The notes below the pieces were generated by a model that ran no database searches, had not been told where the DNA came from, and saw nothing but the letters and a program-made list of their open reading frames with translations. A stretch of 63,872 nt of DNA, filler included, from Reclinomonas americana ATCC 50394 (lineage: Eukaryota): assembly GCA_048213135.1 (NCBI GenBank). It is 10 parts of 6 records of this genome, joined end to end, with 100 filler letters (N's around TTAATTAATTAA, not from the genome) between each part and the next. Parts side by side here need not be neighbours in the genome. Positions count along the whole stretch, not along the records: positions 1 to 14,871 come from PS015309.1; 9 more parts are not named here. The stretch is one strand, 5' to 3'. Below, in pieces: positions 2,783 through 63,872 of the stretch. Position 1 is the stretch's first letter, and every line of letters begins with the position of its first letter. The translations under genes and the position numbers were made by a program.

Positions 2783-4258
2783 GGGAGGGTGTTGACTGTG
2801 ATGTCATCCAGATGTGAAGCTGCGATATCGACTGTCGTACGCGGTTGGCTTGCTCTTCTCCGTGCTGGTCTACAAATGGCACACAATTCAGTACGTGCTA
2901 GTCGCTGCTGCTGTGTACGGCGTGTGCGCAGTGTCATCGCTGCGATCGCGGGCGCACTTGCTGGCGTGGTTCATCACGTTTGGGACGCTGCTTGTTGGGT
3001 GAGTTGTTGGACGATTTCTGTGTCAGGAGAGGAGGGTGCAGCCGCGTGCTCATCATGTCGACCGACGTGAAACAGCAAGTACTACATGATGATGTACCGC
3101 TTCCTCGACTGGGCGCTCGATTTCACCGGTCTGTCTTTTGTGATGCGTCTCTGTGCTGGTGGTTTCGTCTCTCAACTCCGCGATGCGTACACAGGACCAC
3201 TGATGCTAATGGCACTCCGCATCATTGCCTTTGCGTACAACTATCGTGATGGACTGATGTGCGACAAGGAGAAGCCGGCGAGTGATGCCAAGCCTGTTGA
3301 GTTCACGCGTGGCGGGATCTCCGCTCGCAGCCTTGTCCATCTGACATGCACCTCGCTGTTGGTGTTCGTGATGCAGGGTGCTGTTCGCGTGTGGCAACGC
3401 CAGCGCGACTATGCGTTGGACAAGCTGCCGTCGTTGGAGGAGTACTTTGGCTACGTGTTCTTCTTCGGCGCGTATCTGGTGGGGCCCTTCTTCGAGTACC
3501 GCGAGTATCGCGAATTCATTGAGGTGCGCTGCGTGCGGTTCAGTGGTGTTGGTGGTGATTCCGTGCATCCACTGTGGTGCACCACACTCACGTGAGTGCT
3601 GCAGTCGAGGGAGCACAAGGTGGCGCCTGGCTGGCACATTGCCAAGATGACGCTGCTGGGCGTGGCGTTTTTGGTGCCAGCTGGCCTGCACGACTCGATG
3701 GCCATGGATTACTTTGGCACGGATGGACTTGCAGAGTTTCTCGCCAAGCCGCTGTACACTCGGTGTGTTGGGGTGGGGATTCCCGCGGGAGATGGGTGAA
3801 CAATGGTGGCACTGGTCTCACGGTTTTTTGGTTTGCAGGATGTTGCTGGTGTATCTCTCGTGTCTGTTCTTCCGCTCTCGTTTCTATGCCGCGTTGCGTC
3901 CGCAACCTATTAGTATCTCGTGCTCCCCTTGCACGCTTCTGATTGATTGTGTGTTTCTTCCAACTGGTGTAGGTGGCCGCTCGCTGAAGGTTTCGTCTAC
4001 GCATGCACTTTTTTCTCCATTTTTCAGACTCACCATGTGTTTGCTTGTTGGGCAGCCGGCTGCCATGCTGCTGGATTCGGCACTCGAATTGAGCGATCTG
4101 AGGATGGCAAGGAGGTCGTTAAGTACGACCTGTTGCGCAATGTGCGCGCCATTGAGATGGAATTGAGTCCGTCGACCAAGGACTGTGTGGGTGTCTACTG
4201 GAATATTCTCACGGCACGGTTCCTCAAGCAATGTTGCGCGGCCGATGTAGAAACATGA
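2587..4258 (+). CDS. MBOAT-family lysophospholipid acyltransferase (LPCAT/ALE1-like); 3' end lost in gap
   Basis: Hydrophobic N-terminus, then DFTGPLMLMALRIIAFAYNYRDG, LPSLEEYFGYVFFFGAYLVGPFFEYREY, RFYAA|WPLAEG, NVRAIEME and WNILTARFLK. Confidence 0.88.
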
Positions 4259-4362
4259 NNNNNNNNNNNNNNNNNNNNNNNNNNNNNNNNNNNNNNNNNN
4301 NNNNNNNNNNNNNNNNNNNNNNNNNNNNNNNNNNNNNNNNNNNNNNNNNNNNNNNNNNNNNN

Positions 4363-7300
4363 GGGCGCGAAGCTTGTCCAAATTCCATTCGGCTTCCGAA
4401 CGCGCCATGTCTGGTCCGAATCGTCCGGCAAACATACGCTTGGCGACTTTGCAGGCAGTGCGACCGACAATGCTGCGCACTTTCTCTCGCGTCCAGTTGC
4501 CAACGCCAGAGAGCACGCTGGTGGTAGAACAGGCAATGCTGTGCAACAACGCCGTGTCAGCTGCAGCCGGAAAGCAGACAGGACACGACACTAACGCAAC
4601 ATATCCACTTGGTGCATCTGCTCCGCCCGCAGCATGTCGCTCACCGACAGCGTCCACGAAGCGGAGGGCACATCGATCTTGTTGGCCACCACCGTATCGC
4701 ACACCATCTGATAACCGTTTCTTCTGAATCCCTCAATCATGGCCTTTTGGTGCCACTCCGACACGTCCTGCATTGCACAATGAGGTTTGGGCTGCCATCG
4801 CATGCAATACGTGTGTGACCTAAAAAAATCACCATAAACGATTTTCGATCGGCGACATCGTAGAGGAGCAAGAAGCCGTGCGCCTGTCGAAAGTACGAGC
4901 CGACAATGTGCATTGAACTGTCGCTCCCTGCATTCAACATAGTAACAACATGTGGGTGATGAGATTGCGCGAGCGGAGTGCAAAGGCGCACACACCTGGT
5001 GTATCGAGCAGCTGTCCACGGAAACCAAACGCGATACAGTCAGCAATAAAAGAGTGCGGTACAACAATATCGATTGCAGTGCGCACCCAGATTTCGTACA
5101 CATGCCCGCTGTCCACGCGCATATATAACCTGTGCAACTCGGCTGCAACAACCGAATGCTCATGTCAGCGAATTCACACACGCACGCGCACACACGCACA
5201 CACTACGCAACGGCCAATCGTAATGGTCTGTTGATCGCCAGCAACGCCACTGGCAGGAGCAAAACACTCGCAAAAGGTACTCTTGCCAACTGCCACAACA
5301 GTAAGCCGATAACATCGCGTCGACAGGCAAGCACGACAGAAATTCCGAACCACCACGCGAGCCGAGCACCAGCAACTTGATGGTGCAGTGCGGCGACGCG
5401 GTGCCCCACTCTGGTTGCAGTTCAGTCTGCGTCACGCGATAGATACACTCCAGTCAGTGTACACACGCTGTGTGGCGCATCACTACGAGTGCCATCGTAC
5501 CGAGTATTCGGCAATCGGATACGCAGCGCGTTCTTTCGGCCGTGCAAACAATCGTGGTCCACCTGTGCGACGCCGTGCATGAGCGACGAAAGCGAGTGGA
5601 GGAGTGTGATGCAGGCAGTCGATTACAACGCAACGACCGTGCTTCTCGCGGTGGCGATCAGTGAGTACCACGGTCGCACTGTGCAGGCGTGAATCCGCTT
5701 CACTCGCCGACTCCACGTCGCGCACATCGTCTTCGAAAAAGTTAATGTTGCGCAATCGCATGGGACCGATCGGCTGTACACCAATATTCGGCAGTGAGTC
5801 AACACCACAGAGTCGTGTGTGCACTGTGACTAGGCGGCGCACATTCTGACCGCCACCAAGTAGGAATGACTTGGTTGAAATCAAGTCCCGATAACGTTCA
5901 ATGACCGCGTCATCCTCGGCTGTGCGTTCACGTCGTGAGCCACTGGCAAGCACACCCAACCAAAGCGACGCACCTCGAGGGTTCTTGTCGAGCCAGTCCA
6001 AGGTATCCGCGAGTTTCTCCTGAAGCTGCTGGCGGTCGAGTAGTTTGTTTTTGCGCGTCAACTCTGCACCAAGCACAACGCTATCAGCGTCGACAGCAAG
6101 AAGTGCACTACCACCACCACCACCAGCAGTGCGCAACGGTGCTCGAGAAGCGACTGCAAGCAGCTGACGGTGTCCAGCAGCAGAGCGTGCGAGTCGGCGA
6201 GTTCCAGATACTTGCTCGAGTGGATGCGTGCGAGTCGCCGCTCGGCCTTGCTCTTCTCCGAACCCGTGGTCACCTCCAGCTCGCCACCCTCCACTTGCCA
6301 GTTGATATCGGAAGGAAGCGACATGTCAGCCACCTGCGCAGACATGTTTAGCGGAGACGTCACAGAGAGTGAGAGATGATGGTATAAACAATAACACGCA
6401 ACATCGTCTCGTCCGGGCTCCGGTACCATCAGGCGCATGTCACTTGGATCGGCACCCACCATGAGTCGCAGCTTGAACGAGGCCGGCGGTCTCGAATCTG
6501 GACTCTTCCACTCCACCGAGCACCAGATAACGGGGTACACGGTCTCGCAGAGGGTCACCGGCTTGTCGTTGCGCAGACGCCTCCATGTGTGCTCATTGAT
6601 ACCTGTGTGCCACGAGAGAGAAAGTGAGGGTGCCTGGACTGGTGAAAATTAGTGGGCAACACTCGGAGGAGCGAACCGCCGCGATGTTCGAGCACCACAA
6701 AGTTGAGTTTGCCGGGTTTCGGGCCGTGCGGAATGATGACATCGAGGAATTCGTCGGTCGGCTGGTGAGCATCCAGCAGGTACGCCTCCTGCTTGTCGCC
6801 TGCCTTCCTGGCAACCGGTACGCCAAAAATCTGTGTGCGCAGCGTGCCGGCCGTGGGTGCGGTGGGAGACAGAAAGAGACAGAGATCGCACTGACGCTGG
6901 TCGCGCACCTTGAACTTGCGGTCGTCACTTTCGACCACCTGCGCCACTGTGTACGCATGCGAGAGCGCATCATCAAACTCGAACGACGCTCCCGGGTGAC
7001 GTCCACTCAGTTTCGCTGCCAAAATGGCCGCCCCAATAGCCACTGCATCAGCCGGCTGCGGGACAAAGTGTGTTGTGTGCGCGAATGAGATCAAGCGTTG
7101 CGTCGACAACTCTATGTGGACGTGTACACCAACCTCCTTCAGCACCGAGATGTTCTCGTGGAAGAAGCACCGATCGAGAAGAATGTTGAGCAGGTGAGGA
7201 ATGTGGAACGCTCCGCCGCCAAGAATGACACAGTTGATGTCGCGTGGAGTTTTGCCAGCCGCACGCAGTGCATCGTGCACCGGTGTCAAGCAGCGACTGC

Positions 7301-8918
7301 ATGGAGCGAGTGTGAGGCGCAGTACCAGCATATGATTGTAAATGTTACACACAGCAGCACCTGTAAAGCGGAGCCGTCAGATCGTTGAACTGATCCCTCG
7401 TAATGGTCACCTCCAGCGACATGCCGTCGTACAGGTCGTTGATCGACACCGACACCGACACATCTGTCGACAGTGCGCTCTTGGTCTCGGCAGCATGGTG
7501 CAACAGGCGCACCATGGCATCGGCATGATTCCGAATGTCGAATTCGTGCTGCTTGCGAAACTCCTCGCAAAAGAACCTGTGCGCGTCGGGCAGGTTGAGA
7601 GATGAGGGGTTGAATGGTCATACTATGCACTGCATGAGTTGAGCGAAACTGCACGAGACAGTGATCGAAATCAAAGCCACCACACTTGTCGGCACCGGCC
7701 GTTGACAGCACTCGCACGCCAACGGGGGAGAACTCCACAATCGACACGTCGAGGAATGCGGCACCAATGTTGAAAACAAGACCAACACGGTATTCGTTTG
7801 CGTGATCCCAATAGTGAGCGATTGCCGACAGCGTCGACTCGGCCACCTGCGTGTATTGTCTATGAGCAGGCCACGTGCACACAAGGACTCCGTGCCCACC
7901 TGGACAACTGTTGCACTCACCAATGTGACACTGTGGAATCCGGCAAGTATGGCGGCGTCGGAGAGCGCACGTCGCTGTAGTGCCGAGAACACGACGGGTA
8001 CGCTGAGAACAGTGTGCCGAACTTGCTCGCCGGCCGCCCGACTTGCCGCCTCGCGTGCCTGCTCCAGGACCAGTGCCGTTACTGGGTGCAGTGAGAGGGG
8101 AAGAATGGGAGACAATGTGTGAATGAAAGCGATTGTCGACTGCGAGACAAGTGCCGCGGATCACCTTCCTCGAACGCCACGGGGATCTGTCCGCCGGCCG
8201 TCTTCACCTTGGCCAGTGGCTTGAAGTACTTGTTCTGAAAGATCTCGTACACCCAGCGATCCTGCCGCTTCTCCTCGGTCAGCGTCGGCAACAATGGATC
8301 GTCTGCAGGTCGCCGTGAGGAAGTCTTCAAACCCGACACACACACACACAGAGACGGGCACCCAACGAAAGCTGCGCCCGAGAAACATCTTGAAATCGTA
8401 CAGTGTGTCGGCAGCATGCCGCGCATGCCGCATGCGACTGAGGTAGCCCAACACGCGCGCTTGCTGACCAATGCCCGTAAACGTGATTTGCGTGCTCATC
8501 TCCACCGCCTGCGTCACAAGCGCATGACGAACGTGCCCAAGAGACTACCAGTCACACGCACACACACACACACACACAAGAACGCAACAGTGGTGTCGGG
8601 CACCAGGGGCTTATCAGGCGCCAAAGGATCCATGATCAGCGTCGGTCGCACCATCGCCGCACTTGCCGCACCTCGACCGCCTCCCTCATGTGCGCCAGTC
8701 GTCGTCCGCCGCACATGATCCTTCTTCAGCTCACCCACCCAAGGCAGCACGCGTGGCACCGGGCAGTCTGTGGTCTCTGGAGGCGTATCCACCAGTGCCA
8801 CTCGCGTGTACGCCGATCCAAAGTCAATGCCACACATAACAGGCGCAGCTGCGATGCCCGATGGACCCACTCCTTGTCCTCCTCCTCCTCCACTGCCACT
8901 GCCACTGGCACGTCTCAT
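4363..8918 (-). CDS. Divergent Hsp70 fused to C-terminal Rab-like small GTPase, copy A (tail lost in gap)
   Basis: Hsp70 nucleotide-binding domain: CGIDFGSAYTRVA, DFKMFLGRSFHDP, VLSVPVVFSALQRRALSDAAILAG, VAESTLSAIAH, CGGFDFDHCL, VILGGGAFHIP, PADAVAIGAAILAAKL. Lid-like LADTLDWLDKNP. Then, through in-phase GT-AG introns: YPIAEYS|TELQPEWG...IKLLVLGSRG|VGKST, TIG, LLDTPG, SYFRQAHGFLLLYDVADRKSF, VVANKID. Confidence 0.82.
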
Positions 8919-9017
8919 GATTTTCGCGCCACACGGTGATCGGATATCACAGTGCCCGTTGGTCTGGCGGGTGGTGGATTTGTGCGAAACTGGATTTTCT
9001 CATTTTCTTACGTAAAC

Positions 9018-11189
9018 ATGCCGCGACAAAAAGCTGACTCTTCCGGCGATGCCCCAAAGAAGCCCGGTGGTCCGTTCATTCAGTTCCTGCAGGAGGCGCG
9101 TCGCGGGCATATTCCAGTTGCGTGAAAAGAGCTTCTCGCAAAGCACTTCGGAAATGCGGCCGCGGCTGTGACAGGTTGGATCCTGATGGTTTTCTGCTTT
9201 TTTTCTCGTCGTCTCTGCACTCGGTGGATGTAGGCTCTTGCGGGAGTGGGTGGAGGTGATCTGGCAGTGCGCGCCGGCGAGGTGTGGCGCAGTATGACGG
9301 ACGAAGACAGGGAGGTGCGTGTGAGTGTGTGTGTGTACACAGCGCAGAGTGTCTCTCACTCACCATCGCTTTGATGGTGAAGCCGTACCTGGCCATGGTC
9401 AGAGAGGCGACTGAGCGCTACCACGAGTACATGGTGAGCTTGGGCGCGGCGGCAGCGGAAGGCAGCCACAGACCAGCCCGATCGAGACGATCACACGTTT
9501 CCAGACGAGGTGCAGATTCACCATTGCTTTCGTCGTCGTCGTTGTCGTCCTCGGCATCCATGTCGTCGTCCACCACGCCGCTGTTGGATCTGACCTTGGC
9601 GCGTGTGCCCCCACCACCAAAGGTGAGAGAGTGATTACGCATGCGCACCTCCTCTCCACACTGCAATCGCCGCTGCATATGGTGTGTGGTGTCCGGATGA
9701 AAAGAATCGTTGAAATCCTTTTCGCAGCCGCAGCCACTGACGACTGGCGAGAGGTCAAGCGCGAGGTCTCCGACAGCAGCACGTGGCAAGCCGTCGGTGA
9801 GCGTGACGACACCGCCGTCCGGGGCCAGAGTGATGAATGTATGTTCGATATTCATGATCACTCACCACCCACTGCACTCGTGCAGATGTTTGTGGGATCG
9901 GCGGCGTCGAGTGCTGCTGTGTCTGAGGTGACGCAGCCGTCGCCCTCCAGTGTATTCTCTTCGCCGACGCCGTCTCCACCGCCGCCGATGCTGCAAGCAG
10001 TGCCGAGACCAACAACAACCCTCTTGCAAATGCCACACAGATTGTCGACGACAACAACGCCAGAGGTGGTGCTTATTGGTGGTCTCTCGCATATTTTGGC
10101 AAGGGAATCAGTTGATACTCAAGTTGTCTCCGCGCAGCCGATGGAGCAAGGCGAGACCACGGCACGCAGTCGTGCAATCACTGCAAGCGCAGGGGAGGTG
10201 GATTATGTTTTCTTTTGCAATTTGGTCGCGATCACTGTCGTTGTCTCACTCCACACAATTGAACCACAAATAGGCAAGAGGAGCCATGGAGGTGCGCGCA
10301 GCCTCCCCAGCTGCAGCTGAGCGAGGGCAATCGCACTCGCTGTCAGCAGGGTCGTTCACAAAAGACGTGCGTTGTGTGTTTCTTGTCTTTGTTTGTCGTG
10401 TTGTTGTGCGATTGCGATTGACATCTGTGGTGGCGTGTCTCTCTCTGTGTACAGTGGTACAGTGTGGTGCGGCAGAATCTGGTGCGCGACAACCGGCGGT
10501 TCCTGGCCGAGTTGCAGCCGCTCGTGTACCTGCCACAGTCGAGTGCAACGGCCGGTCTCGTGCAAGTCTACATCATGTTTATGATTTGCAAGCGACTGCT
10601 GCAAGATGTCGACGGCACCCGGCTGCCGCCACCGACACCGGCAGTGGCACAGCTGTGGTGCGAGCACTCGGGGAATATTAACAGCTACACGGCGTTCTGC
10701 AACGCCCTCGCAGGGCAGACAATTGCCGTGCCACATGCAACTCGGGTTGAAGTGGCGTTGTCGATGATGAGTGTTCCCGGGCCCGTCGAGAGGACCGTGA
10801 CCGCGCAGCGGCTTCACGCGTTCAACTTGCTGCTTACCACCGAGTTTGACACATCGTACGCCGAGACTTTGGCTGCTGTTGGTACCGGTCGCACTCAGCC
10901 AGGTGCGTCGTCGAGCACCACCACCACGACAACGACGACAACGACGACGACGGCGGTGAAGCGTGTGGCCATTGTCGTCACGGCGGACGCACGAACACTG
11001 AACCTCAAGGTGAAACCGCTGTCGCTGATTCGGCAGTTGCTGAGCAAGCTGGCGGCACACTTGCATGTTCCGGAAAACATGCTGCAGTTGCAACGACCCG
11101 ACGGTGTGGTCCTGCAGCCAAGTGCGACGGTGACCGACTGTGGAATCGTTGACGGCGACCAACTGCAATGCGTCAGGCTATCGCTGTGA
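9018..11189 (+). CDS. HMG-box protein with DUF1399/GRDP-like middle domain and C-terminal ubiquitin/SUMO-like domain
   Basis: HMG box: APKKPGGPFIQFLQEAR...RAGEVWRSMTDEDRE|PYLAMVREATERY. S/P-rich linker. Middle domain: YIMFMICKRL...PTPAVAQLWCEHSGNINSYTAFC. Ubl-like end: VAIVVTADARTLNLKVKP...LQPSATVTDCGIVDGDQLQC. Confidence 0.68.
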
Positions 11190-11313
11190 CCTATTCCATC
11201 CTTCTTTTTTTTTGTAAGCCTCTCGCATTCTCTCCTCTCTGTTTCTCAATCCCGTGGGGTGCTCTCTCCTCTCTGTACAACCATTATTGCGAATCATGTA
11301 CATATAACAATGT

Positions 11314-14300
11314 TTAACAAGCGCACTTTTGTGATTGTTGTCCCTCGTCAGTTGGTTGTGTGGCAGGTCTTTCGAGCGAGATCGTATCCGACCTTTCCGT
11401 GTCGGCCACAGACATGAGATCCTGTGTGCGCACACAGGTTGTGAGCATGTGGAGCACATTCGGCAATGTGGGACGATAAAAAACACGCACCCTAAATCCA
11501 TTGTCGCGCCGTTGTTGCAGTTTCTCGCTCGCCCATTCCGCCTCCGACTGCGCCATTCCGGGACCAAAGCAATGCGCAAACATGCGCTGCACAACAGTCT
11601 CGACGGTGCGACCGACAATGCTGCGCAATTTATGCCGCGTCCAGTTCGGTCGCGTGTTGAACACTGCATCGGCACTGCACGAGATGCTGTGCTCGAACTC
11701 GCCGTCATCAGAAGCACGTGACACACGGTGATGAACGCGACACACACACACACACACCAGTCGACATTGTGCATCTTCTCAAAGCGAAGCAGGTCCGGGA
11801 TGGGCAGTGCCGCCGGCTGATCCACCTTGTTGACCACCACCGTGTCAAATGCAAGTTCGTAGCCATTGCGTCGGTACCCTTCGATCATGGCTTGTCGGTG
11901 CCACGCAGTCAAGTCCTACCGCATAGAATCACCACCATTATGAGTGCACAGTCATTGAAGTGCGTGCGCGCGCGTGTGTGTTTGTTTGACGAGCCTCAAG
12001 TGATTTCGGGTCGCTGGCGTCGCACATGAGAATGAAGCCATGCGCTCGACGGAAATACGAGCCGAGGATCCGCATCGAGGCATCGCCACCGGGAGTGTCC
12101 ATGAGCTGCAGGGGCATGCACGACCGTCTGTGAGGCCGACTGTCACACCAACCGGCAACGAGAAAGACGCACCCAGATCTCGTACACGCGGCCCTCGAAT
12201 GTGCGCATGTACAGTCGATGCAACTCGGCTGTACACACGCCCGACACATGAATCAGGTGCAGGTTGCAACAATCTTCGGTGAAGAAATGCGACGCAACGG
12301 CCAATAGTGATCAGATCATGCTCATCCGAGAGACCCGGTACTGGAGCAAAGCAGTCGCAAAACAGTGTCTTTCCAACTGTTCATCATCATCATCAACAAC
12401 AACAACAACAGTCAAAACCACGACGATGGCACTTGTCATGAGGGAAACAAATACCATTCTTGGAGCCGAGCACGAGCAGTTTCACCACACACTGCACCGC
12501 AGTGGCACCCCACTCGGGTAATATGGTCAGCTGTGCATCGGTGCGTCAGGGACACAGTACACAGCAGCACCGACAGTGGGCGATCTACGCAACCGAGTAC
12601 TCTGCCGTCGGGTACTTGACCCGATCGTGCGGGCGAGCAAAGAGAGCAAAGCCGGCACCAAATACGCGCTCCCTGTACGCCAGTGGATCCATGGCTTTCC
12701 TGACGTTGCGACCCGAACCATGACGTCGTCGGTTCCGGCCGCTGTGATGATCGGAGTGCTCCTTTGTTCGCAGTCGCAGCGGTGGTGACTGCAACAACAA
12801 AGTCGTGATGGGGCAATCCACGGCACACTTGCAGCAGACGCGACAGAACAGCCAGACGTACCACATCTACTTGCCCGAGGGCGACAAACTTGAGTCGCAA
12901 CAGGTGTGATAATCTCTCCATGACGTCGGCGTCGGGGGCTGCCGATTGGAGTCATAAGTTGCTGACCGAATATATAACGAGGAGCGGAAATCGAGCATTC
13001 ACACGAACCTTGTGGCATCGCCTCCAGCCACTCCAACGTGTCTTGCACTGCACGAGACAGTGCTGAACGCACTTCGTGGTGCGAGTGTCGCAGCAGCTCT
13101 GACAAATCGAATAGTATATGTCGAGAAGTGATAAGTGGTACACACAAAACACGCACACACAGCAATCAAGTGAAGTGAGTGCGTGTACGAACGAGTGAAG
13201 AGCGCGGACTCTATGGACGAGATGCAGTTGAGCAGGCGAAGTTGCGGAGCAGAAAAGCGCGCGGCGGACTCTTGTGCGCGACGGATTTGGAGACGGCGTT
13301 CGCGAATCTTACCCATCTTGGCGGGATGAAGGAATATCACACGGCCCTCGGCCACCACTGTGTCCTTCTCGTCGCCCTCGAATTTCTGGATCCCAACACA
13401 GAGAGCAATGACTTGTCAGCACACGAATACGCGATCACTGCCATCAACCCCCGAGTTTGTGACTTGCCGCTGAAAACAGCATATCAATGTCGCTCGGATC
13501 GTCTCCGACACGCAGGCGGATGCGGTATGACTGCGACTCAGGCTCCGCCTCCGTCTCGGTGGTCAGGCGGCCGTGGATAACGGGGTACACGGTTGATGAG
13601 AGCGACACAGGCTTGCCCCGAGAAATCAGTCGCCATGTTTCCTCTCGAATGCCTGCCATCACGTGTGATGAGTGTGAGTGATTCATCCTTTCCAAACACG
13701 GAAACAGCGTGCGCACTACCTCCGCGGTGCTCAAGGACGGTGATGAACGGAGACCAGTTTGGCTGGGCGGGCGATACTCGCAGATCCACTTCTCCGCCGG
13801 CAGCACGGTGGCCATCGAGCGGATAGCCGTGTTGTGCGTCCTCCTCTTGTGGCACACCAAATATCTGCAACATTGTTTCTCATTCCGTGCCGTCACAGAC
13901 ACCCCCGTCTTCTTCCTGCTTTTCTGACGCACCTCGTATTCGGTGGGCCCCACTCGCCGAGCCAATGTGTACCCGTGCGACAGAGCATCAGTGAACTGGA
14001 AATCGTCGGCTGGCGACAGCTGCTCGCTGAACTTGGCGCCCAAGATTGCGGCGCCCATCGCCACATCGTCGTCATCCTGCCGAGCGCACACGATGAGATG
14101 CACGTGGGACAAAGAAAGACTTGACGAACGATTCGCACGCACCGCTTTCATGACTTGAATGTGCGAGTGGAAGAAGCAGCGCTCCAGCAACACGTCGTGC
14201 ACTCGCGGAATATGCGACGCACCACCGCCCAGCACAACACACTCGATATCGTTGGGGGTGAGACCAGCATTGCGCAGCGCCTCGTGCACCGGTGTGAGAC

Positions 14301-14871
14301 ACGGACTGTGAGTGTCGACAGCAGTGAGCGAGAGAATGTGACATGAAAGGGCAGTCTCACATACTCACCTGAGCAGGTGCGCTGTGACCTCATTCATCTT
14401 GGCTCGCGTCAGCCTGTAGTTCAAGTCGAGGCCGTCGTACAGATCGGCCAGTCGCACAATGTCCACATCGTCCGACGACAGGATCTTCTTCGCCTGCTCT
14501 GCTCGCTGCATGAGACGGATGCGGGCCACAGCATCGGTTTTCATCGAGCGCCGATGCGCCGTTTGGAACTCCACACTCAACAGCCTGTGTGCGCACTGAT
14601 GAGATGCACGTCAAAGGCATGCATACATACGCTCACCACAGCCGCGTAACTCGGCAATGGCACTGTCGAATGCACGGCCACCGCAGTCCTCGTTGCCGGC
14701 CGTGCCCAACACTCGCATGCCCTGTCTCGTCATTTCCACGATCGACACACTGCAAAATCGCGCTCCGAGCACATAGACCAGCACCGTGCGCTGCTTGTGA
14801 CCGTGATCCCAGTAGTGTGTGACGGCAGCAAGTGTGCTTTCCGTGACCTGCAACGATGGTGGTGCATCAGT
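11314..14871 (-). CDS. Divergent Hsp70 fused to C-terminal Rab-like small GTPase, copy B (N-terminus cut by spacer)
   Basis: VTESTLAAVTHYWDH, CGGRAFDSAI, VVLGGGASHIP, DVAMGAAILGAK, VQDTLEWLEAMP, then YPTAEYS|LTILPEWG...VKLLVLGSKN|VGKT, LMDTPGG, SYFRRAHGFILMCD, VVVNKVD, ISCSA and tail ...TQPTDEGQQSQKCAC*. Several intron positions are shared with copy A. Confidence 0.82.
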
Positions 14872-14915
14872 NNNNNNNNNNNNNNNNNNNNNNNNNNNNN
14901 NNNNNNNNNNNNNNN

Positions 14916-14927
14916 TTAATTAATTAA
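14916..14927. other. Artificial contig spacer TTAATTAATTAA
   Basis: Six-frame stop linker flanked by 44 N on each side; recurs identically nine times. Confidence 0.97.
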
Positions 14928-14971
14928 NNNNNNNNNNNNNNNNNNNNNNNNNNNNNNNNNNNNNNNNNNNN

Positions 14972-15503: not shown

Positions 15504-18168
15504 TTAGAACGGGCGGTCGGTGAGAGACGGCACGGGGCGTGCCGCGAAGAAATCAATCAGCGTGTTGACGTCGCGCACGATGCGGTCCTTGGTGAAGCCA
15601 AAGTGTGCCATCACATCCTGCGATGCATGGTGAGCACACTGTTTGCATGACATGCAGTGGCTGTGATAATGGCGTACCTTCAGCGGAGCACTGGCACCAA
15701 AGGTGCGCATGCAGTGCTGAGCATGTGAGTAGCGGTCCCAGCCTGTGCAAAGAATCGTGCAAGTCAGTCGGCAGTGACACAGGAGGGGAAGGAAGATCTC
15801 CTGGGCGCGCACCAACAGCGCTGTGGGCCTCGACTGCCAGCACCGGCACGCCAGCGGGGAACACTGTCTGCTTGTACTCCAGCGACTGCTCCTCGAAGAT
15901 CTCCCACGACGGCATGGAGACCACGCGCACGTTCTGTTCAGGGGTGAGACATGCATAATCAACAGCAACGAGTGTGCACGTGGCGGTGTACGCACCCGGC
16001 CGGCCTCCTTGGCAGCATCCACGCACAGCGACACCTCACTGCCCGACGCCACCAAAATCGCGTGCGGCTCACCGGCAAAGCTGTCGGTCAAAGCGTACGC
16101 TCCGCGGAAGACGCCCTCAATCGACGAGCCCTGCAGCTGCGGCAGAGCCTGGCGCGACAGTGCCAGCACACATGGGCCATGGCGACGCTCAATGGCCACC
16201 GCGTACGCACCCGAGGTCTCGTTGCCGTCGGCCGGACGGATGTAGTACATGCCCGGCATGGCACGCAGCATGGTCGGCACCTCAATCGGCTGATGTGTCG
16301 GTCCGTCCTCGCCGAGGCCAATCGAGTCGTGTGTGGCCACGTACACGACACCGTGGTGTGCGAGAGCCGACAGACGGACAGCGCCGGCGGCGTAGCCAAT
16401 AAAGTTGAGGAACGTGCCGCAGTACGGGATGAATCCACCGTATGCCGCCAGGCCGTTGCTGATGGCCGCCATGCCGTGCTCGCGCACGCCAAAGCGCAGG
16501 TAGCGACCCTCGTAGTGGTCCTGCGCACCACACAGGAGAGGTTCAGCAGAAGCACAGGGAAGTAAAATGCAGCGGACATCGAAAGCACCTTCTGGAAGTC
16601 GTGGCCGCCCTTGATCTCGGTCAGGTTGGATGGCGTCAGATCGGCCGAGCCACCAATCAGTGTCGGCAGGTGTCGCGCAATGGCGTTGAGGGTGAGCTCC
16701 GAGGTCTGACGAGTGGCCAGCGCCTTGTCGCCCGGGTGGTACTTGGGCAACGCATCGCGCCACGCAGTGCCGAGCTCGCTGCGAGAGAACGCCGCATAGT
16801 CGCCAGCCTGGTCCGGGTGCTCGGCCAGGAAACGATCGACGGCCGCATGCCACTCGGCCTCCTTGGCCGCACCACGCTCCGCCGCCTCGTGGAACGCCGC
16901 ACGCACACTGTCGGGCACCACAAACGACTGCGCCGGGTCGAAGCCAAAGGCGGTCTTCAGGGCCGCCAAGTTGGCGGGTCCAAGAGGTGCTCCGTGCACT
17001 TTCTCCGTGCCGGCCAACACCGAGCCGAAACCAATGGTGGTTCTGCGCGGAGAAGAATGAGAGAGAGAGAGAGAGAACGCGCGCGTGTGAGAAAGAGAGA
17101 GAGGCGACGCAACTGCAGACGAATGATCGACGGGCGGTCGGTGACGGCGCGCGCCTCGTTGATGGCACGTCGAATGCCTTCGAGATCCGTGTCGCCGTTC
17201 TCCACGTACTGCACATGCCAGCCAGCAGCGTGGAAGCGACCGTCCGTGTCCTCCGTGAACGCCAACTCCGTGCCGCCGTCAATGGAGATGTGGTTGTCGT
17301 CGTAGATGAGAACCAGGCGGCCGAGACCGAGGTGACCGGCCAGCGAGATGGCCTCTTGCGAGATGCCCTCCATCAGGCATCCATCGCCGCAAAACACATA
17401 CACGTAGTGATCGGCGACCTCCGGAGCGAAGCGCTTGGCCAGGTGGTGCTGCGCAATCGCAAAGCCCACCGCGTTGGCCAACCCCTGTCCCAGCGGACCC
17501 GTGGTGACCTCCACACCCGCCGTGTGGCCGCTCTCCGGATGGCCCGGCGTCCTACGCGACACGATAATGAGGAGACGACGAGAGGTAAACGAGGGAAACG
17601 GCGCCCTGTCTCTTGGTGTACGCAACAGAGAGCCGAGCGAGCGGAAGCGACGCAGCTGGTCCAGCGACACATCCTCGACTCCCATCAAATGCAACATCGT
17701 GTACAGCAACTGCACAATCACAACTCACTCAGCACTCCTCGAGACACAGCAGCAGAGGAGGCTGTCACGCAACTGCACAGCCGTGACCATTGGAGAGCAC
17801 GAAACGATCGCGGGCGTACTGCAAAAGAAGAGCACAATGTGAGCAATCAAAATCACAGATGCAAAGATGCGTTTTGTGTGATGGGGAGGCAAAGCAACGT
17901 ACCCACGAGGTGTTGCGCGGGTTGAAGTTGATGAACTCCTTCCACAAGACGTAGGCCACAGGCGCCATGCCCAGCGGCATGCCTATTCACACGCACACAA
18001 AGGAGACAACACACACAAAGACGTGAGAATCAGCTTCGTGTCTCTCTCTCCCCTGTGCGTGTACATCATGTGTCACATGCCTGGGTGACCAGAGTTGCCG
18101 GCTTGCACTGCGTCGGCGGCAAGCACGCGGATAGTGTTGATAGCCAGTGTCTCTGCCTCGGAAGCCAT
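15504..18168 (-). CDS. TKT: Transketolase
   Basis: [60 protein letters not shown]...[47 protein letters not shown]. Confidence 0.97.
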
Positions 18169-26159: not shown

Positions 26160-26203
26160 NNNNNNNNNNNNNNNNNNNNNNNNNNNNNNNNNNNNNNNNN
26201 NNN

Positions 26204-26215
26204 TTAATTAATTAA
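26204..26215. other. Artificial contig spacer
   Basis: N44-TTAATTAATTAA-N44. Confidence 0.97.
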
Positions 26216-26259
26216 NNNNNNNNNNNNNNNNNNNNNNNNNNNNNNNNNNNNNNNNNNNN

Positions 26260-26970
26260 CAGCAGGAATGCACGTGCCTGGAACACGAGAAAGTTTCGCG
26301 CTCGAGTGTCGATGCCTCGCTCGCTCAGCGCCGCATTGTACTCGTCCCACGTGCGCTGTCGCCCGTCGATGCGATACTCACTAGCGCCTGCGGCTGTGAT
26401 GTGTCGCTCAAAGTGCGTCTCGCGATCACTGCTCTCCGACTCCTTGTAGACCAGTCGCACGTACGCCCGCTGCGGAGCACGCTGCGCACAACGAGTCGGC
26501 ATCGGCGCGTCAAACCGCACGAGACTGCCTCACACACAAACCTTGCCGCCGCCACCATCACCAGCATACACCAGATCCTTCAGCTGGTGCGATCGAAGTG
26601 CCGCCGCCCGCACTCCCATCACAAAGCAAATGGCGTCCATGAGGTTCGACTTGCCTGCGTCGCATCATCAAAGTGAGAGACGACCAAAGTCACACTTGGA
26701 CATGTCGGCAAACAAGAGACAACACACACACACACACGCGCACACACACGCACGCACGCACCGGCGCCATTGGGCCCCACGACAGCGGTGAACTGGCGAA
26801 AGGGGCCAATCACCTGGTGACCGCGGTAGCTCTTGAAGTTCTCGACCTCCAGGCGGTCAATGAACCCCTGTGAATGACAGGCAAAAGTGAGTGAATCACA
26901 CACGGAGAGAGGGCGCGAGGGAGAGATAGAGAGAGAGGGAGGAAGAGGGAGAGGGAGGCGCACACACCAT
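26260..26970 (-). CDS. SMC1: Cohesin subunit SMC1, N-terminal part
   Basis: [50 protein letters not shown]...[11 protein letters not shown]...SEYRIDG...RARNFLVFQ. Confidence 0.93.
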
Positions 26971-27061
26971 TCTCCGTCACACTTCAATCGACCTCGATGC
27001 GAAGGGTTTGCGTCGATTTCCCGCGTCGCGAGCACTCCCGCAATCTCCCTTGCTTTCGCCA

Positions 27062-27808
27062 ATGCCAGAGTTCTGGGTGCTGCGCTGTGCTCTGTGTGGC
27101 ATGTTCCAGGTGCAGCAGGCCATCAAGGCGAAAAACTGGGCCTGCCGCGTGTGCCACAGTCGCCAGTCGGTCATGAAAGTGTGGGGTGAGTGTCCATTCT
27201 GTGTGTGTGTTTGCTTGGCGTGTGTGTGAGCTGACACGCACGCACAGGCAAGGCGGAGCAGGCGAAACCCATGCGTGCGCTGGTGCAGGAGCTGAACATG
27301 ACAGCGGGCACTCTTCGCGAGCAGGTGACTGCCACTGCCGCACCTCCTTCACCATCTCCTCCACCTCCACCTCCTCCACCTCCTCCCCCACGATGGAAGC
27401 AGTTCGTCTCCTCAGAGGCGATGAAGAAGGAGGAAGAGGAGGAGGAAGAGGACACTGGCACTGTCGGCACCTACAAGGGTCTTCCAGTGGTCACCGCGTT
27501 GCCGTCGAGTGACGGCCACGCGCGTGTGAGTCGCCCGCGACAGCGCAAGAGTGCCACTGCCACACGACGACCCGCCGCATCACCGTCACCACCACAACAA
27601 CAACGGTCAGGGGATTCACCACCGCACAAGCGCGCACGACACCACCACGCCACTCTAGTGGTGGAGGAGACGTGGGATGTGCTCGCGGCGGATGAGCCAG
27701 CTTCGGCGGCGACACGATACGCTGCGCCTGCCTACGAAGATGATGATGATGATGGTGGTGATGATGTGGATCGCCAGCAAGCAGTAGCAACGGCAGCAGC
27801 GTATGAGT

Positions 27809-32837: not shown

Positions 32838-32881
32838 NNNNNNNNNNNNNNNNNNNNNNNNNNNNNNNNNNNNNNNNNNNN

Positions 32882-32893
32882 TTAATTAATTAA
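32882..32893. other. Artificial contig spacer
   Basis: N44-TTAATTAATTAA-N44. Confidence 0.97.
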
Positions 32894-32937
32894 NNNNNNN
32901 NNNNNNNNNNNNNNNNNNNNNNNNNNNNNNNNNNNNN

Positions 32938-50187: not shown

Positions 50188-50329
50188 GTCTCGTCGTCGT
50201 CGTCGTACTCGTACTACGTCGTACTCGTCTCGTACGTCGTCGTCCGACGTACGTACGTACGTCGTTCGTGTCGTCGTCGTATCTANNNNNNNNNNNNNNN
50301 NNNNNNNNNNNNNNNNNNNNNNNNNNNNN

Positions 50330-50341
50330 TTAATTAATTAA
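50330..50341. other. Artificial contig spacer
   Basis: N44-TTAATTAATTAA-N44. Confidence 0.97.
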
Positions 50342-50385
50342 NNNNNNNNNNNNNNNNNNNNNNNNNNNNNNNNNNNNNNNNNNNN

Positions 50386-53690: not shown

Positions 53691-54354
53691 TCAGACGCCA
53701 TTGAGGAGTTTGAAAAAGTACTCCACTTCCAGTACACCGTCGCCGGGCAGGTCGGTGCAGTGGATGGCGTTCTTGACCTTGTCCTTGCCGTGCTGCGCTC
53801 GCAGCGTGTGCGGCCTCAACACCTGCAGCGGAGCACAATCAATCACGGCACTTCAAGCGGAGCAACGAGACAGCACCGCACCTTGCCAATGGCCGGGTCG
53901 GCGGGTCCACACAGTTCTCGGAACTGGCCCACCACATCGTCACTGTCTTTTCGCAGCTCCATGGCCAACACTGGTCCAGCCACCAGCTCGTCCAGCATGC
54001 CCTGATACTCGGGAATGACGCCCTTGTAGACCTCAATAAACTCCTCTNNNNNNNNNNNNNNNNNNNNNNNNNNNNNNNNNNNNNNNNNNNNTTAATTAAT
54101 TAANNNNNNNNNNNNNNNNNNNNNNNNNNNNNNNNNNNNNNNNNNNNGAGAGAAGGATAAGGAGAGGGAGAGGGAGAGGGAGAGGGGAGAAGGGAGAAGG
54201 GAGAAGGGAGAGGGAGAGACATGGAGGAGGAATGGAGAGAGGGAGAGGGAGGGAGAGAGAGAAGGAAGGGAGAGGGAAAAGGGAGAGGGAAAAAGAGAGG
54301 TGAGAGAGGGACAGGGGAGGGGAATGGAGAAACGCGGAGGGGAGACGAATCTCT

Positions 54355-54397
<43 letters not shown>

Positions 54398-55481
54398 AGA
54401 GAGGGAGAACCGAGAGAGCGCAGAGAAGTGAGGCACTACAATTGAGGAAAAAACTGCAGTGTCGTGGATACACACAAAATAATGGAAAGCAGCAACACTC
54501 CAGCAGAAGAGAGAACAGGAACGCAGTGATTCCAACACAGAAGAAATTTGCTCTCTCTCTCTCTCTTGCCTTCTGTGCTCCCCTCACTCTCTCCCTTCTT
54601 CCCTCCCTCCCTCCTCCTCCCTTTCCCTTTCTCACTCTCTCACTCACCATCGCGAATAGCGTGTGGTCGAACGACTGCACACGTGCAATCCTCAAACGTG
54701 GCCGTCGCCTCAAAGAACACCGAGCCACCAAAGAAGAAGTCAATCTCCCGCAGACCGCTCTCCACGCTGTCCGAGCCGTGCACAGCGTTGCGTGTGTTGT
54801 CGGTGCCAAACTGGGCACGAATGGAGCGCGGAGCGTCGTGTCGTGCCACCGACGTACTCGTCGGTCCAATCAACTGGCGCCACTTGGCAATCGCGTTCTC
54901 CCCGACCAGCTCCATTGCAATCACGTAGCCCGACGTCATAAAGTCGACCAGATTGCTGCACGCACACACACACAGGTGAGCAACACGGCTCACAGGCTCA
55001 ACAGTGTGCAGTGAGCGGTGCCTGTCGCGCAACTGGTAAAACTCGCGTCCACGATGCGCCTCGTAAAACGCCTCGGCATTGTCGCGCGTCAGTCGCACCA
55101 GTCGCATGTTGGCAATGGTGAGCCCCGTGTCGCGTTGCTGAATGGCGGCAATGATGCGGCCGGCATTCGGGTAGCCGTCGGGCTTGATCATGGCCAGAGT
55201 GCGCTCGCGGTTGCCCTCGGCCAACGCACGCGTGTAGTCGTCGGCGTAGGCCGCGATGCGCAGGTGGCGCGAGTACACCACCACTGTGTTGCCGAGGTAG
55301 AGATCGTCGCGTGCAATGTCGGGGTACTTGCAGCGCTTGAGGAAGACCTTGCGGTTCTTCACGTCGTACTGGGGGAGGCGAGGGGGGGGGAGGTGAGGGG
55401 AAAGGGTGGGGTGAGGGATAAGAGAGAAGACAATTCGTTCTGCAGCTTTTCTCTCTGTCTGGAGAAGACGAAGAGAACGGG

Positions 55482-55555
<74 letters not shown>

Positions 55556-55907
55556 CTCACAGCCTCAGCAACAGCCTGCAGAACAGCTTGCACTGCCTCT
55601 CGCCCTGTAATCTGCTCCCTTCTTCTTTGTCTTCTCTCTCTCACTCTCTCTCTCTCTCTCACGCTCTCTCTCTCTCTCTCACTCTCTCTCTCTCCTCCAC
55701 ACACTCTCTCTTACCATCTCAATCGTGTTGTCGGCCAAGAAGAACAGCAGCTGATACGTTCTCACCACATCCGCCAACTCATCGTAATACTCGACCACAT
55801 ACGCCAATCGCTCTTCTGTTGCCTGTGACTGTACAACCATACACACACAGACAGAGTGAGTGAGAGTGAGAGGAAGAGAGGCAAGGAGCAGAGGAGAGGC
55901 GAACCAT
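53691..55907 (-). CDS. NME7: Nucleoside diphosphate kinase 7 (DM10 + two NDK domains), spanning a spacer
   Basis: DM10: ERLAYVVEYYDELADVVRTYQLLFFLADNTIEM|YDVKNRKVFLKR. NDK-A: RTLAMIKPD...RNAVHGSDS, CTCAVVRPHA. After the spacer: EEFIEVYKGV...KNAIHCTDLPGDGVLEVEYFF. Confidence 0.93.
54092..54103. other. Artificial contig spacer (inside NME7)
   Basis: N44-TTAATTAATTAA-N44. Confidence 0.97.
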
Positions 55908-57093: not shown

Positions 57094-57295
57094 GTGAGTG
57101 CCGCGTTGGTGTCTCTACTCCTCTTCTTTGCTCTGTCTTGCTGGGCTTCTCAGTTGGGCTGGCGTTACTTGTCTGGATTTTGAGATATCCGTGTTGTCAT
57201 TCAAGTTTTCCTCTTGTCTTCCCCTCGTGTTTCTTCTCTCTCTCTCTCTCTNNNNNNNNNNNNNNNNNNNNNNNNNNNNNNNNNNNNNNNNNNNN

Positions 57296-57307
57296 TTAAT
57301 TAATTAA
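57296..57307. other. Artificial contig spacer
   Basis: N44-TTAATTAATTAA-N44. Confidence 0.97.
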
Positions 57308-57414
57308 NNNNNNNNNNNNNNNNNNNNNNNNNNNNNNNNNNNNNNNNNNNNCTCTCTCTCTCTCTCTCTGTCTGTCTCTGCGTGTCTCTCACACGCCTGT
57401 CGTTGTTGGTGCAG

Positions 57415-60674: not shown

Positions 60675-60719
60675 ANNNNNNNNNNNNNNNNNNNNNNNNN
60701 NNNNNNNNNNNNNNNNNNN

Positions 60720-60731
60720 TTAATTAATTAA
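60720..60731. other. Artificial contig spacer (inside DCAF1)
   Basis: N44-TTAATTAATTAA-N44. Confidence 0.97.
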
Positions 60732-60775
60732 NNNNNNNNNNNNNNNNNNNNNNNNNNNNNNNNNNNNNNNNNNNN

Positions 60776-62733: not shown

Positions 62734-62777
62734 NNNNNNNNNNNNNNNNNNNNNNNNNNNNNNNNNNNNNNNNNNNN

Positions 62778-62789
62778 TTAATTAATTAA
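62778..62789. other. Artificial contig spacer
   Basis: N44-TTAATTAATTAA-N44. Confidence 0.97.
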
Positions 62790-62833
62790 NNNNNNNNNNN
62801 NNNNNNNNNNNNNNNNNNNNNNNNNNNNNNNNN

Positions 62834-63482
62834 AGGAGGAGGAGGAGAGGGGGGGTGGAGGAGGAGTGGGGGAGAGAGAGAGAACAGCGCACCGCATCCG
62901 TAAAGAACACATCGCCATCATCCAACTGCACAATCGACCACGGAGCGCGGAACTGCGCCTCCGACGACACTCCATCCTCGCTGCCCTTGTCACCAGTGCT
63001 GCTACCGGCAAACGTACACACATAGCCGCGCCCAACATCCACAAACGACGTCGCCGATTCGTCAACAGTCAAGCTCGTGGAAGACGACAGCAGCAAGCAC
63101 AGTGGATACTGTTGCCAGCGAACAGTCAACACACAACACTCACTCACTCACTCATTTCCCTTGATCCCCCCGCAACTGTTCCCGGCGACACTGTCGCCAA
63201 ATCAAACTCCACGCGCACCACTGCATCAGTCTGCGACACACGCGAGACACGCGTGGCCTGCGCAACCACTCTTCCCGCCCACGTGGCACACCCTCCCAGT
63301 CGCACCGACTGCACCGCAGCGACCAGCACCGTCGCATCTTGCACACTCGCGTCGGAGAGCGACAAGGCCACTCGCTGTGAGTTGCGCGTGTATAGCGCGA
63401 GAGGAGAGGCGCGGTGGATTGACAGTGACTCAGTGGTGGCCACAAGCACAAGAAGAAGCAGCAGCGCACATGCTGCGCGCAT
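62834..63482 (-). CDS. Secreted/surface NHL-repeat protein, 5' part
   Basis: Signal peptide MRAACALLLLLVLVATTES; VCTFAGSSTGDKGSEDGVSSEAQFRAPWSIVQLDDGDVFFTD is an NHL-type blade. Confidence 0.68.
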
Positions 63483-63535
63483 CCCTGCTCACTGGACAAC
63501 AAATTTTCACTGTTAACACACTTAACACACACACA

Positions 63536-63872
63536 ATGAACGATCTCTTCTTGTGCGCTGCTGTGCGATCACTGCCTTACATCGTCTGTGCTGCTGCCAT
63601 CACGCCTGATGGTGAGCATCTCGTGTCGGGCTGCGTTGATAACAGTGTGCGCGTGTGTGCACTGGTGAGTGGTGCGCAAGTGCAGCGACTGCAGGGGCAT
63701 TTTCAGTCAGTGTGCGCTGTCGCGGTGACTGCGGATGGGCAGCATGTGGTGAGCGGAGGCGAGGACTTGACTGTGCGAGTGTGGTCACTGGCGAGTGGTG
63801 AAGAGGTGCGACGATTGCACGGGCACACGGGGTGGGTGTGGTCGGTGGCTGTCACTGCGGATGCGCAGTGCG
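63536..63872 (+). CDS. WD40-repeat protein, 5' part (runs off window)
   Basis: AITPDGEHLVSGCVDNSVRV...LQGHFQSVCAVAVTADGQHVVSGGEDLTVRVWSLASGEEVRRLHGHTGWVWSVAVTADA. Confidence 0.88.
   Translation, partial: MNDLFLCAAVRSLPYIVCAAAITPDGEHLVSGCVDNSVRVCALVSGAQVQRLQGHFQSVCAVAVTADGQHVVSGGEDLTVRVWSLASGEEVRRLHGHTGWVWSVAVTADAQC

Follow-up and report, generated by a model that had tools for sequence, protein, structure and literature searches.

Two paralogous gene models of Reclinomonas americana lead from an Hsp70-like body into a Rab-like G domain

This study concerns two loci on the minus strand of a 63,872-nucleotide stretch of DNA (the window) from Reclinomonas americana ATCC 50394 (assembly GCA_048213135.1), which consists of 10 parts of 6 records of this genome joined end to end. 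In both loci, referred to here as copy A and copy B, one reading path leads from an Hsp70-type nucleotide-binding domain (NBD) into a complete Rab-like G domain, as a sequence-only reading of the same DNA by a model had claimed. The sequence itself shows how the genes are built, which domains they contain, what state the motifs are in, and how conservation and selection act on the two paralogues. We consider it likely, with a probability of roughly 0.7, that each locus is one "large Rab" gene of ~1,100 residues in which the Hsp70-fold body acts as a built-in membrane effector. The domain architecture is new and is built from two known kinds of domain.

The gene models (Table 1) were built by hand: all frame-keeping GT/GC..AG pairs between neighboring coding blocks were enumerated, and the choice among introns was guided by Hsp70 homology and by agreement of the paralogues. 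Motif coordinates were read off the printed sequence by hand with the help of the exon table. The spliced path is free of stop codons in both copies, as the earlier reading had stated, and canonical Hsp70 spacing is reproduced by the joins ...GGFDFDHCLVQ/FFCEEFRKQ... and ...FLGRSF/H/DPLLP... (here and below, slashes within a sequence mark intron positions). The 36 modelled introns are 54 to 94 nucleotides (nt) long, with GT at the start of 35 and CAG at the end of 35. Seven share the donor heptamer GTTGCGT and several open with (GT)n runs; the splice-site pattern of the modelled introns is unusual and rather uniform. Where 4600-4539 was chosen as an intron of copy A, a 35-nt alternative (4595-4561) was dropped in favor of the recurrent GTTGCGT donor and a phase that matches copy B.

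For the NBD, we assembled a local Hsp70 profile from 57 distinct viral Hsp70/DnaK open reading frames (ORFs), which were taken from 61 ORFs at 80 loci found with the pattern DLGGGTFDV; three of three sampled references match Pfam HSP70 with 839-859 bits. Against this profile, spliced copy A scores 218.0 bits over positions 45-382 of 624 and spliced copy B 128.4 bits over positions 173-382, and none of 100 shuffled sequences produced a match at E<=10. Pfam HSP70 is found above its cut-off on 4 of the 14 stop-to-stop ORF pieces of copy A (E 4.7e-5 to 7.7e-11), and these matches tile profile positions 112-345 of 599; nine other pieces have no Pfam match, and one has a sub-threshold match to Ras (20.7 bits). 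The NBD exons match Hsc70, Ssb1 and DnaK in the PDB, where the first exon of copy A has no significant match. The phosphate-1-like GIDFGSAYT of copy A is visible, not scored, and is followed by an insertion of ~80 residues.

Compared with canonical Hsp70s (Hsc70/HSPA8 and yeast Ssb1) and DnaK, both copies thus have a homologous, colinear NBD. They retain residues at the positions of Lys71 (the Lys of ...DAKRLIGR, seen in copy A only) and Glu175 (the Glu of NEPTAA), the GG of the adenosine loop, and ...DAVAxGAA at the position of NPDEAVAxGAA, and their ...DTL[DE]WL... motifs are located where the lid helices would lie. Unlike canonical Hsp70s, copy A has the ~80-residue insertion after phosphate-1, the β-sandwich is unrecognizable, there is no EEVD end, and a linker of ~100 residues and a G domain are added. 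The phosphate-2 loop is also degenerate in both A and B. In Hsc70 this catalytic loop, DxGGGTFD, supplies Asp199, Thr204 and Asp206; an Hsp70 that has lost its phosphate-2 Asp and Thr is crippled in ATP hydrolysis. It is therefore doubtful that either copy runs a normal ATP-driven chaperone or uncoating cycle, which weakens the case for the chaperone activity that had been proposed for these proteins; the coat-remodelling role proposed with it remains a guess. Downstream of the NBD, copy A continues with a linker-like stretch (FEFDDA), the unrecognizable β-region, lid-like helices and the linker proper.

For the G domain, a local Rab-like profile was made with a degenerate WDTAGQER pattern, which yielded 121 giant-virus loci, 114 ORFs and 105 distinct sequences; all six sampled references match Pfam Ras with 167-209 bits. 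Copy A scores 63.8 bits (E 1e-18 at Z=1000) over its residues 841-997 and profile positions 8-155 of 203, and copy B scores 47.8 bits. Both G domains span profile positions 7/8 to 155/156, colinear from G1 to G5, and 0 of 100 shuffled G domains matched at E<=10. In the profile scan of the spliced proteins, an Hsp70 match and a Rab-like match therefore stand in one predicted polypeptide in either copy. The switch II exon of copy A gives Pfam Ras scores of 20.1-20.7 bits. In the PDB, the switch II exon of copy B matches 44 sequences at E<=1, and Rab1/Ypt1 make up the best 24 (E 0.006-0.04). Labels of Rab-family small GTPases are carried by 42 of the 44, RASEF included; the other two are rabphilin-3A and one unrelated protein. 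The candidate RabF-like stretch SYFRxAHGF[IL]L aligns to SYYRGAHGIIV of Rab1. Matches of Pfam PsbH and BpsA_C to 2 of the 10 G-domain exon pieces were set aside as chance.

The motifs that had been named from the sequence (DTLDWLDKNP/DTLEWLEAMP, TIG, DTPG, SYFRxAHGF and NKxD) are all present. The G1 P-loop reads GSRGVGKS in copy A, where a phase-1 intron splits it as GSRG/VGKS, and GSKNVGKT in copy B. Copy A further has TIG/P/EL, DTPG/S, NKID (4672-4683) and IACS. G1 (GxxxVGK[ST]), TIG with the switch I Thr, DTPG, NKID or (in B) NKVD, and an xCS that replaces SAK occur in the same order and spacing as in Rabs of the Rab1/Ypt1 type, and copy B also shares their CXC end. Unlike those Rabs, the G domains lack the catalytic Gln after DTxG (DTPGS in A, DTPGG in B), have Leu instead of Trp before DTPG and TIGPEL in place of IGVDF, and follow an N-terminal extension of ~830 residues. 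They are also strongly diverged, with 48-64 bits to the Rab-like profile and no protein match in large collections. We call the G domain Rab-like; it may belong inside the Rab family or to another Rab-like lineage.

Rabs that end in CXC are geranylgeranylated there, and their residence at the membrane is controlled by the GTPase cycle. Copy B ends in QKCAC, which agrees with the earlier proposal of a prenylatable, membrane-anchored protein. The C-terminus of copy A falls in the assembly gap at 4259-4362, so the predicted prenylation motif is established for copy B only.

That A and B are paralogues on the minus strand, as the first reading held, is borne out by their alignment and their exon structure. 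A tblastn search with the copy A minus-strand ORF peptides (9100-4363) against 14871-11101 returned 17 high-scoring segment pairs, all of them colinear; 12 are in coding frames (E 5e-5 to 1.8e-33), and the other 5 are echoes in other frames. Intron phase is the same at 13 of the 15 positions common to both copies, and the two mismatches are the ambiguous introns, one after the DPSD block and one in the linker. Seven exons have identical lengths (197, 216, 163, 90, 76, 78 and 56 nt), and two exons of copy A, of 16 and 95 nt, equal a single 111-nt exon in copy B.

Synonymous sites are saturated between the copies (proportion of synonymous differences, pS, 0.69-0.82). The proportion of nonsynonymous differences (pN) is 0.28 in the G domain and 0.40 in the β-region; the NBD and the final 25 codons ahead of the junction both stand at 0.34. 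Residue identity is 106/209 in the NBD, 15/25 before the junction and 128/218 in the G domain. The lid-like stretch is the sole region near neutrality (pN 0.57 versus pS 0.62). Thirteen intron pairs differ in length and share 54% identity (48% when shuffled), against 63% in eight exon pairs, whose lengths are conserved. With synonymous sites saturated and pN at 0.28-0.43, both halves are under purifying selection. The duplication is ancient, and in the two lineages that descend from it purifying selection has maintained the arrangement, in both halves as well as at the junction.

The two halves meet at a conserved phase-0 junction ahead of the P-loop, which reads in A and B as first claimed. 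In copy A the sequence is ...LFARPKERAAYPIAEYS/GTACGA..(74 nt)..CAG/TELQPEWGTASPHCTIKLLVLGSRG/VGKS, and in copy B it is ...LFARPHDRVKYPTAEYS/GTTGCG..(63 nt)..CAG/LTILPEWGATAVQCVVKLLVLGSKN/VGKT. The frame of copy A is unbroken over 6063-5501, between the lid motif and the junction donor, and meets a stop 5 codons beyond the donor; that of copy B meets one 2 codons beyond. The first G-domain exon starts directly after the CAG in both copies. In neither copy does the unspliced ORF of this exon contain a Met before the P-loop, the earliest Met of the G domain lying after switch I, so the G domain is not translatable alone from an AUG in its first exon. The 74- and 63-nt intervals, which are all that separates the halves, resemble the other 34 introns. 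From sequence and comparison the fusion is well supported, and we infer that the junction is spliced.

These observations have to be set against a reading in which each copy comprises two neighboring genes, one Hsp70-like and one small and Rab-like, that were duplicated as a block, with the proposed junction intron as an intergenic spacer. The in-frame stops just past the proposed donors fit this reading, which likewise predicts conservation up to ...AEYS and nearby stops thereafter. Block duplication would moreover copy adjacency without any selection for fusion, so the duplication itself is no argument for a fused gene. Yet an intergenic spacer would be remarkably short here, its boundaries would fall precisely on GT and CAG in equal phase in A and B, its length and sequence would be typical of an intron, and conservation would end and resume at those boundaries despite saturated synonymous divergence. 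Because the start codon of the Rab-like gene is missing in both copies and the spacer is intron-like, we disfavor two separate genes and regard them as unlikely. An intermediate arrangement is also conceivable, in which the fusion transcript is accompanied by a free, N-terminally extended Rab-like protein that arises from a promoter within the linker or from an alternative first exon. Met codons are available for this in the linker exon of copy B and farther upstream in copy A, and excerpts of one study report long and short isoforms for large Rabs (PMC8016136). If it were true, the two parts would function to some extent as proteins of their own. Nothing in the sequence demands such an isoform, however, and the 25 codons that lead up to the junction are conserved like the domains themselves; we give this arrangement, too, only a small chance.

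We think it very improbable that A, B or both are pseudogenes in decay or that the arrangement is an artefact of assembly. The assembly contains neither copy in full, the ATPase loop has degenerated and one intron of copy B has no GT donor, as might be expected of decay or misassembly. Against this, pN is well under pS everywhere except in the lid-like stretch, both spliced paths are open, and the truncations of A and B coincide with N runs and not with mutations. Both junctions are gap-free and mutually consistent, and misassembly would not yield two of them.

Several points count against the reading of each locus as one fused gene, which we nevertheless prefer. The fusion is known from genomic DNA alone; a search with 4363-14362 for matching RNA sequencing runs listed none, a result that speaks neither for nor against it. 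The models are hand-made and contain two ambiguous introns per copy; one intron of copy B needs a GC donor, and its last intron (11490-11422) is optional. No complete copy is visible, as copy A is without its C-terminus and copy B without ~260 N-terminal residues. Pfam Ras stays under its cut-off on single exons (20.7, 20.1 and 13.4 versus 21.6 bits), and 8 of the 10 G-domain exon pieces show no GTPase family in Pfam. The substrate-binding β-sandwich was not detected by the local Hsp70 profile, whose match stops at position 382 of 624, and hhalign of the A/B post-NBD alignment with the Hsp70 alignment gave a weak overall result (probability 4.4%, P 0.009), in which the forced alignment pairs VLEHRGG with IETAGG. 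The local hhalign match does lie in the lid and is colinear (query 198-258, template 531-599 of 644), and its score of 28.5 exceeds those of 30/30 column shuffles in each of two modes (maxima 25.7 and 22.9). Of the remodelled substrate-binding and lid region that had been proposed, the lid is thus faintly suggested, and the β-sandwich is without support. The ESM Atlas gave no usable match for the lid-linker piece. Finally, the collections searched yielded no orthologue in other organisms through which the fusion would be seen independently.

If each locus is indeed a single large Rab gene, we can picture its product as follows. The N-terminal part would be a strongly diverged Hsp70 with an actin-fold NBD whose phosphate-2 loop no longer has the Asp and Thr on which normal ATP hydrolysis depends. 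The ~360 residues after the NBD would keep a lid-like trace at most. A conserved linker would then join the Rab-like G domain, in which the guanine-nucleotide-binding motifs are complete and there is no catalytic Gln. Without that residue, GTP hydrolysis is expected to be slow or to depend on help, and hydrolysis by this G domain would probably be of that kind. The geranylgeranylated G domain would cycle on and off a membrane in the manner of a Rab, and the attached Hsp70-like body would thereby be positioned at that membrane. There it may serve clients or partner chaperones as a nucleotide-bound binding or scaffolding module that cycles slowly or not at all, and not as a classical ATP-driven foldase. 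Prenylation, membrane binding and the partners of the Hsp70-like body are inferred steps in this picture.

A bolder proposal, which we hold to be rather doubtful, is that these proteins are membrane machines of a new class, with an Hsp70-fold clamp built into a Rab-type switch that delivers it to one organelle by means of GTP loading and a prenyl anchor. The target organelle might then be the ciliary base, to judge from the parallel with RJL discussed below and from ciliary gene content, and the clamp might hold clients or hand them to a canonical Hsp70. If this were true, the fusion would be a "Rosetta stone" that points to a coupling of Rab-like GTPases with Hsp70 wider than the J-domain fusion of RJL had suggested.

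As the first reading supposed, no Hsp70-Rab fusion family came to light in the literature or in the protein and contig collections searched; supplementary tables of Rab surveys may list one. A HMMER search with 6672-7298 of copy A against 1.84 billion representative proteins found no genuine relative, and its three matches at E<=1e-3, to long repeat proteins with 6-14 weak stretches, were rejected as spurious. Word-indexed protein searches gave 59 candidates for the last exon of copy B, none of which scored, 27 candidates for the alignment of the NKxD exon, none of them a relative, and 470 candidates for the alignment of an NBD exon, none at E<=10. Among metagenome sequences, a first scan returned 597 pattern matches, of which 0 were confirmed. 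A second returned 192 matches with one locus, a bacterial contig with a Crp-like ORF, which was dismissed as chance. The collections searched are thin for protists, so absence from them is weak evidence of rarity.

One of the two closest known parallels is RJL/RBJ (DNAJC27), reportedly described by Elias and Archibald in 2009 and said to carry its co-chaperone J domain at the C-terminus, in which a Rab-like GTPase is likewise linked to the Hsp70 system in one polypeptide. Unlike in RJL, the Hsp70-like body itself is fused in A and B, at the N-terminus, instead of a J domain. No DnaJ match at E<=0.1 was found in the 14 ORF pieces of copy A, and in copy B nothing but a ~90-residue tail lies between the G domain and the stop. 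As a further parallel to RJL, the window also encodes, at 54643-55710 on the minus strand, a nucleoside diphosphate kinase of the NDK7 type with an NDK7 N-terminal PH domain. NDK7 is a protein of the ciliary axoneme, and the presence of such a gene in the window suggests that the organism builds cilia or flagella. Excerpts of two papers describe RJL as a Rab-like family of ancient origin whose phyletic pattern ties it to cilia (PMC4736243, PMC13393502). The large Rabs Rab44, Rab45/RASEF and Rab46 are described, in excerpts of a further source, as having N-terminal extensions with EF-hands and coiled coils and a C-terminal Rab domain (PMC8303950). Like A and B, they combine a long functional N-terminal extension with a Rab domain at the C-terminus, where the prenyl motif must be; unlike theirs, the extension of A and B is an Hsp70 fold.

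In Roco, Miro, RhoBTB, RJL and the large Rabs, the fused domain is a built-in effector that reveals what the small GTPase controls. An Hsp70 fold joined to a Rab-like switch that can be prenylated would be the second case, after the J domain of RJL and independent of it, of a covalent tie between Rab-like GTPases and the Hsp70 system, and would offer a direct handle on the role of such a link at the membrane. A and B are also examples of an Hsp70 fold that is retained under purifying selection while its catalytic loop is lost, and the same pattern is shown by non-cycling Hsp70 relatives that act as scaffolds. The architecture is thus of interest for the evolution of both the Ras superfamily and Hsp70, with its weight limited by its confinement so far to the DNA of one genome.

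Table 1. Coordinates of the features of copies A and B and of the spacers in the window
Feature	Positions	Strand	Description or basis
Copy A gene	8918-4363	-	ATG at 8918; 21 exons; 1048 codons; stop-free up to the gap
Copy B gene, 5'-truncated	14847-11314	-	17 exons; 788 codons plus TAA at 11316-11314; ends QKCAC
Copy A NBD, phosphate-1-like GIDFGSAYT to end of profile match	6999-8834	-	Pfam, PDB, local Hsp70 profile
Copy B NBD, C-terminal 210 residues only	14020-14844	-	Local Hsp70 profile
Copy A degenerate phosphate-2 loop, NIGAAFLD for DLGGGTFD	7748-7771	-	Alignment to DnaK and local profile
Copy B degenerate phosphate-2 loop, VLGARFCS for DLGGGTFD	14749-14772	-	Alignment to local profile
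Copy A post-NBD region	5501-6998	-	~360 residues; linker ends LFARPKERAAYPIAEYS
Copy A lid-like motif DTLDWLDKNP	5978-6007	-	
Copy B lid-like motif DTLEWLEAMP	13013-13042	-	
Copy A junction intron	5427-5500	-	Phase 0; 74 nt; GTACGAT...ACGCAG; stops in all three frames
Copy B junction intron	12531-12593	-	Phase 0; 63 nt; GTTGCGT...GCACAG; two in-frame stops
Copy A Rab-like G domain	4363-5426	-	7 exons; local Rab-like profile
Copy B Rab-like G domain and tail	11314-12530	-	6-7 exons; local profile, PDB
Cys-Ala-Cys C-terminus of copy B	11317-11325	-	CXC type
16-nt micro-exon (LLDTPG), A only	4996-5011	-	Same codons inside the 111-nt exon of B
Sole GC-AG intron of the models, copy B	11916-11994	-	No GT donor usable there
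Introns with GTTGCGT donor (first intron base)	8588, 6402, 5634, 5211, 4600, 12593, 12298	-	
Contig-joining spacers	14872-14971, 26160-26259, 32838-32937, 44786-44885, 50286-50385		Identical 100-nt form
Contig-joining spacers, continued	54048-54147, 57252-57351, 60676-60775, 62734-62833		Identical 100-nt form

The window is draft assembly with many N runs and a G+C content of ~55%. Its nine identical 100-nt spacers have the form N44-TTAATTAATTAA-N44, contain stops in six frames and join contigs; they are artificial linkers, and genes that flank a spacer need therefore not be true neighbors. The interval 4363-14871, which holds all that is visible of copies A and B, contains no N. The N-terminus of copy B is severed by the spacer at 14872-14971, and no additional exons of copy B were found elsewhere in the window. 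Between the two copies, an ORF at 10422-11186 on the plus strand ends in Rad60-SLD, a SUMO-like ubiquitin fold (E 1e-6); with this ORF on the opposite strand between them, the paralogues are not a strict tandem pair. Just past the gap that removes the 3' end of copy A lies a fragment of an MBOAT acyltransferase (3071-3592, plus strand, E 1.6e-9).

Beyond the spacer that cuts copy B, a transketolase gene occupies several frames of the minus strand at 15507-17724, with Pfam matches to Transketolase_N (E 3e-70), Transket_pyr (E 5e-42) and the C-terminal domain; in the ESM Atlas a piece of this gene matched bacterial transketolase clusters only. The window as a whole gave no match when scanned with Rfam and for tRNA genes, so there is no sign in it of a spliced-leader RNA gene. 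Farther along, the window contains an SMC_N fragment that is under the Pfam cut-off (26622-27122, minus strand) and an ORF for a WD40 β-propeller (63026-63871, plus strand).

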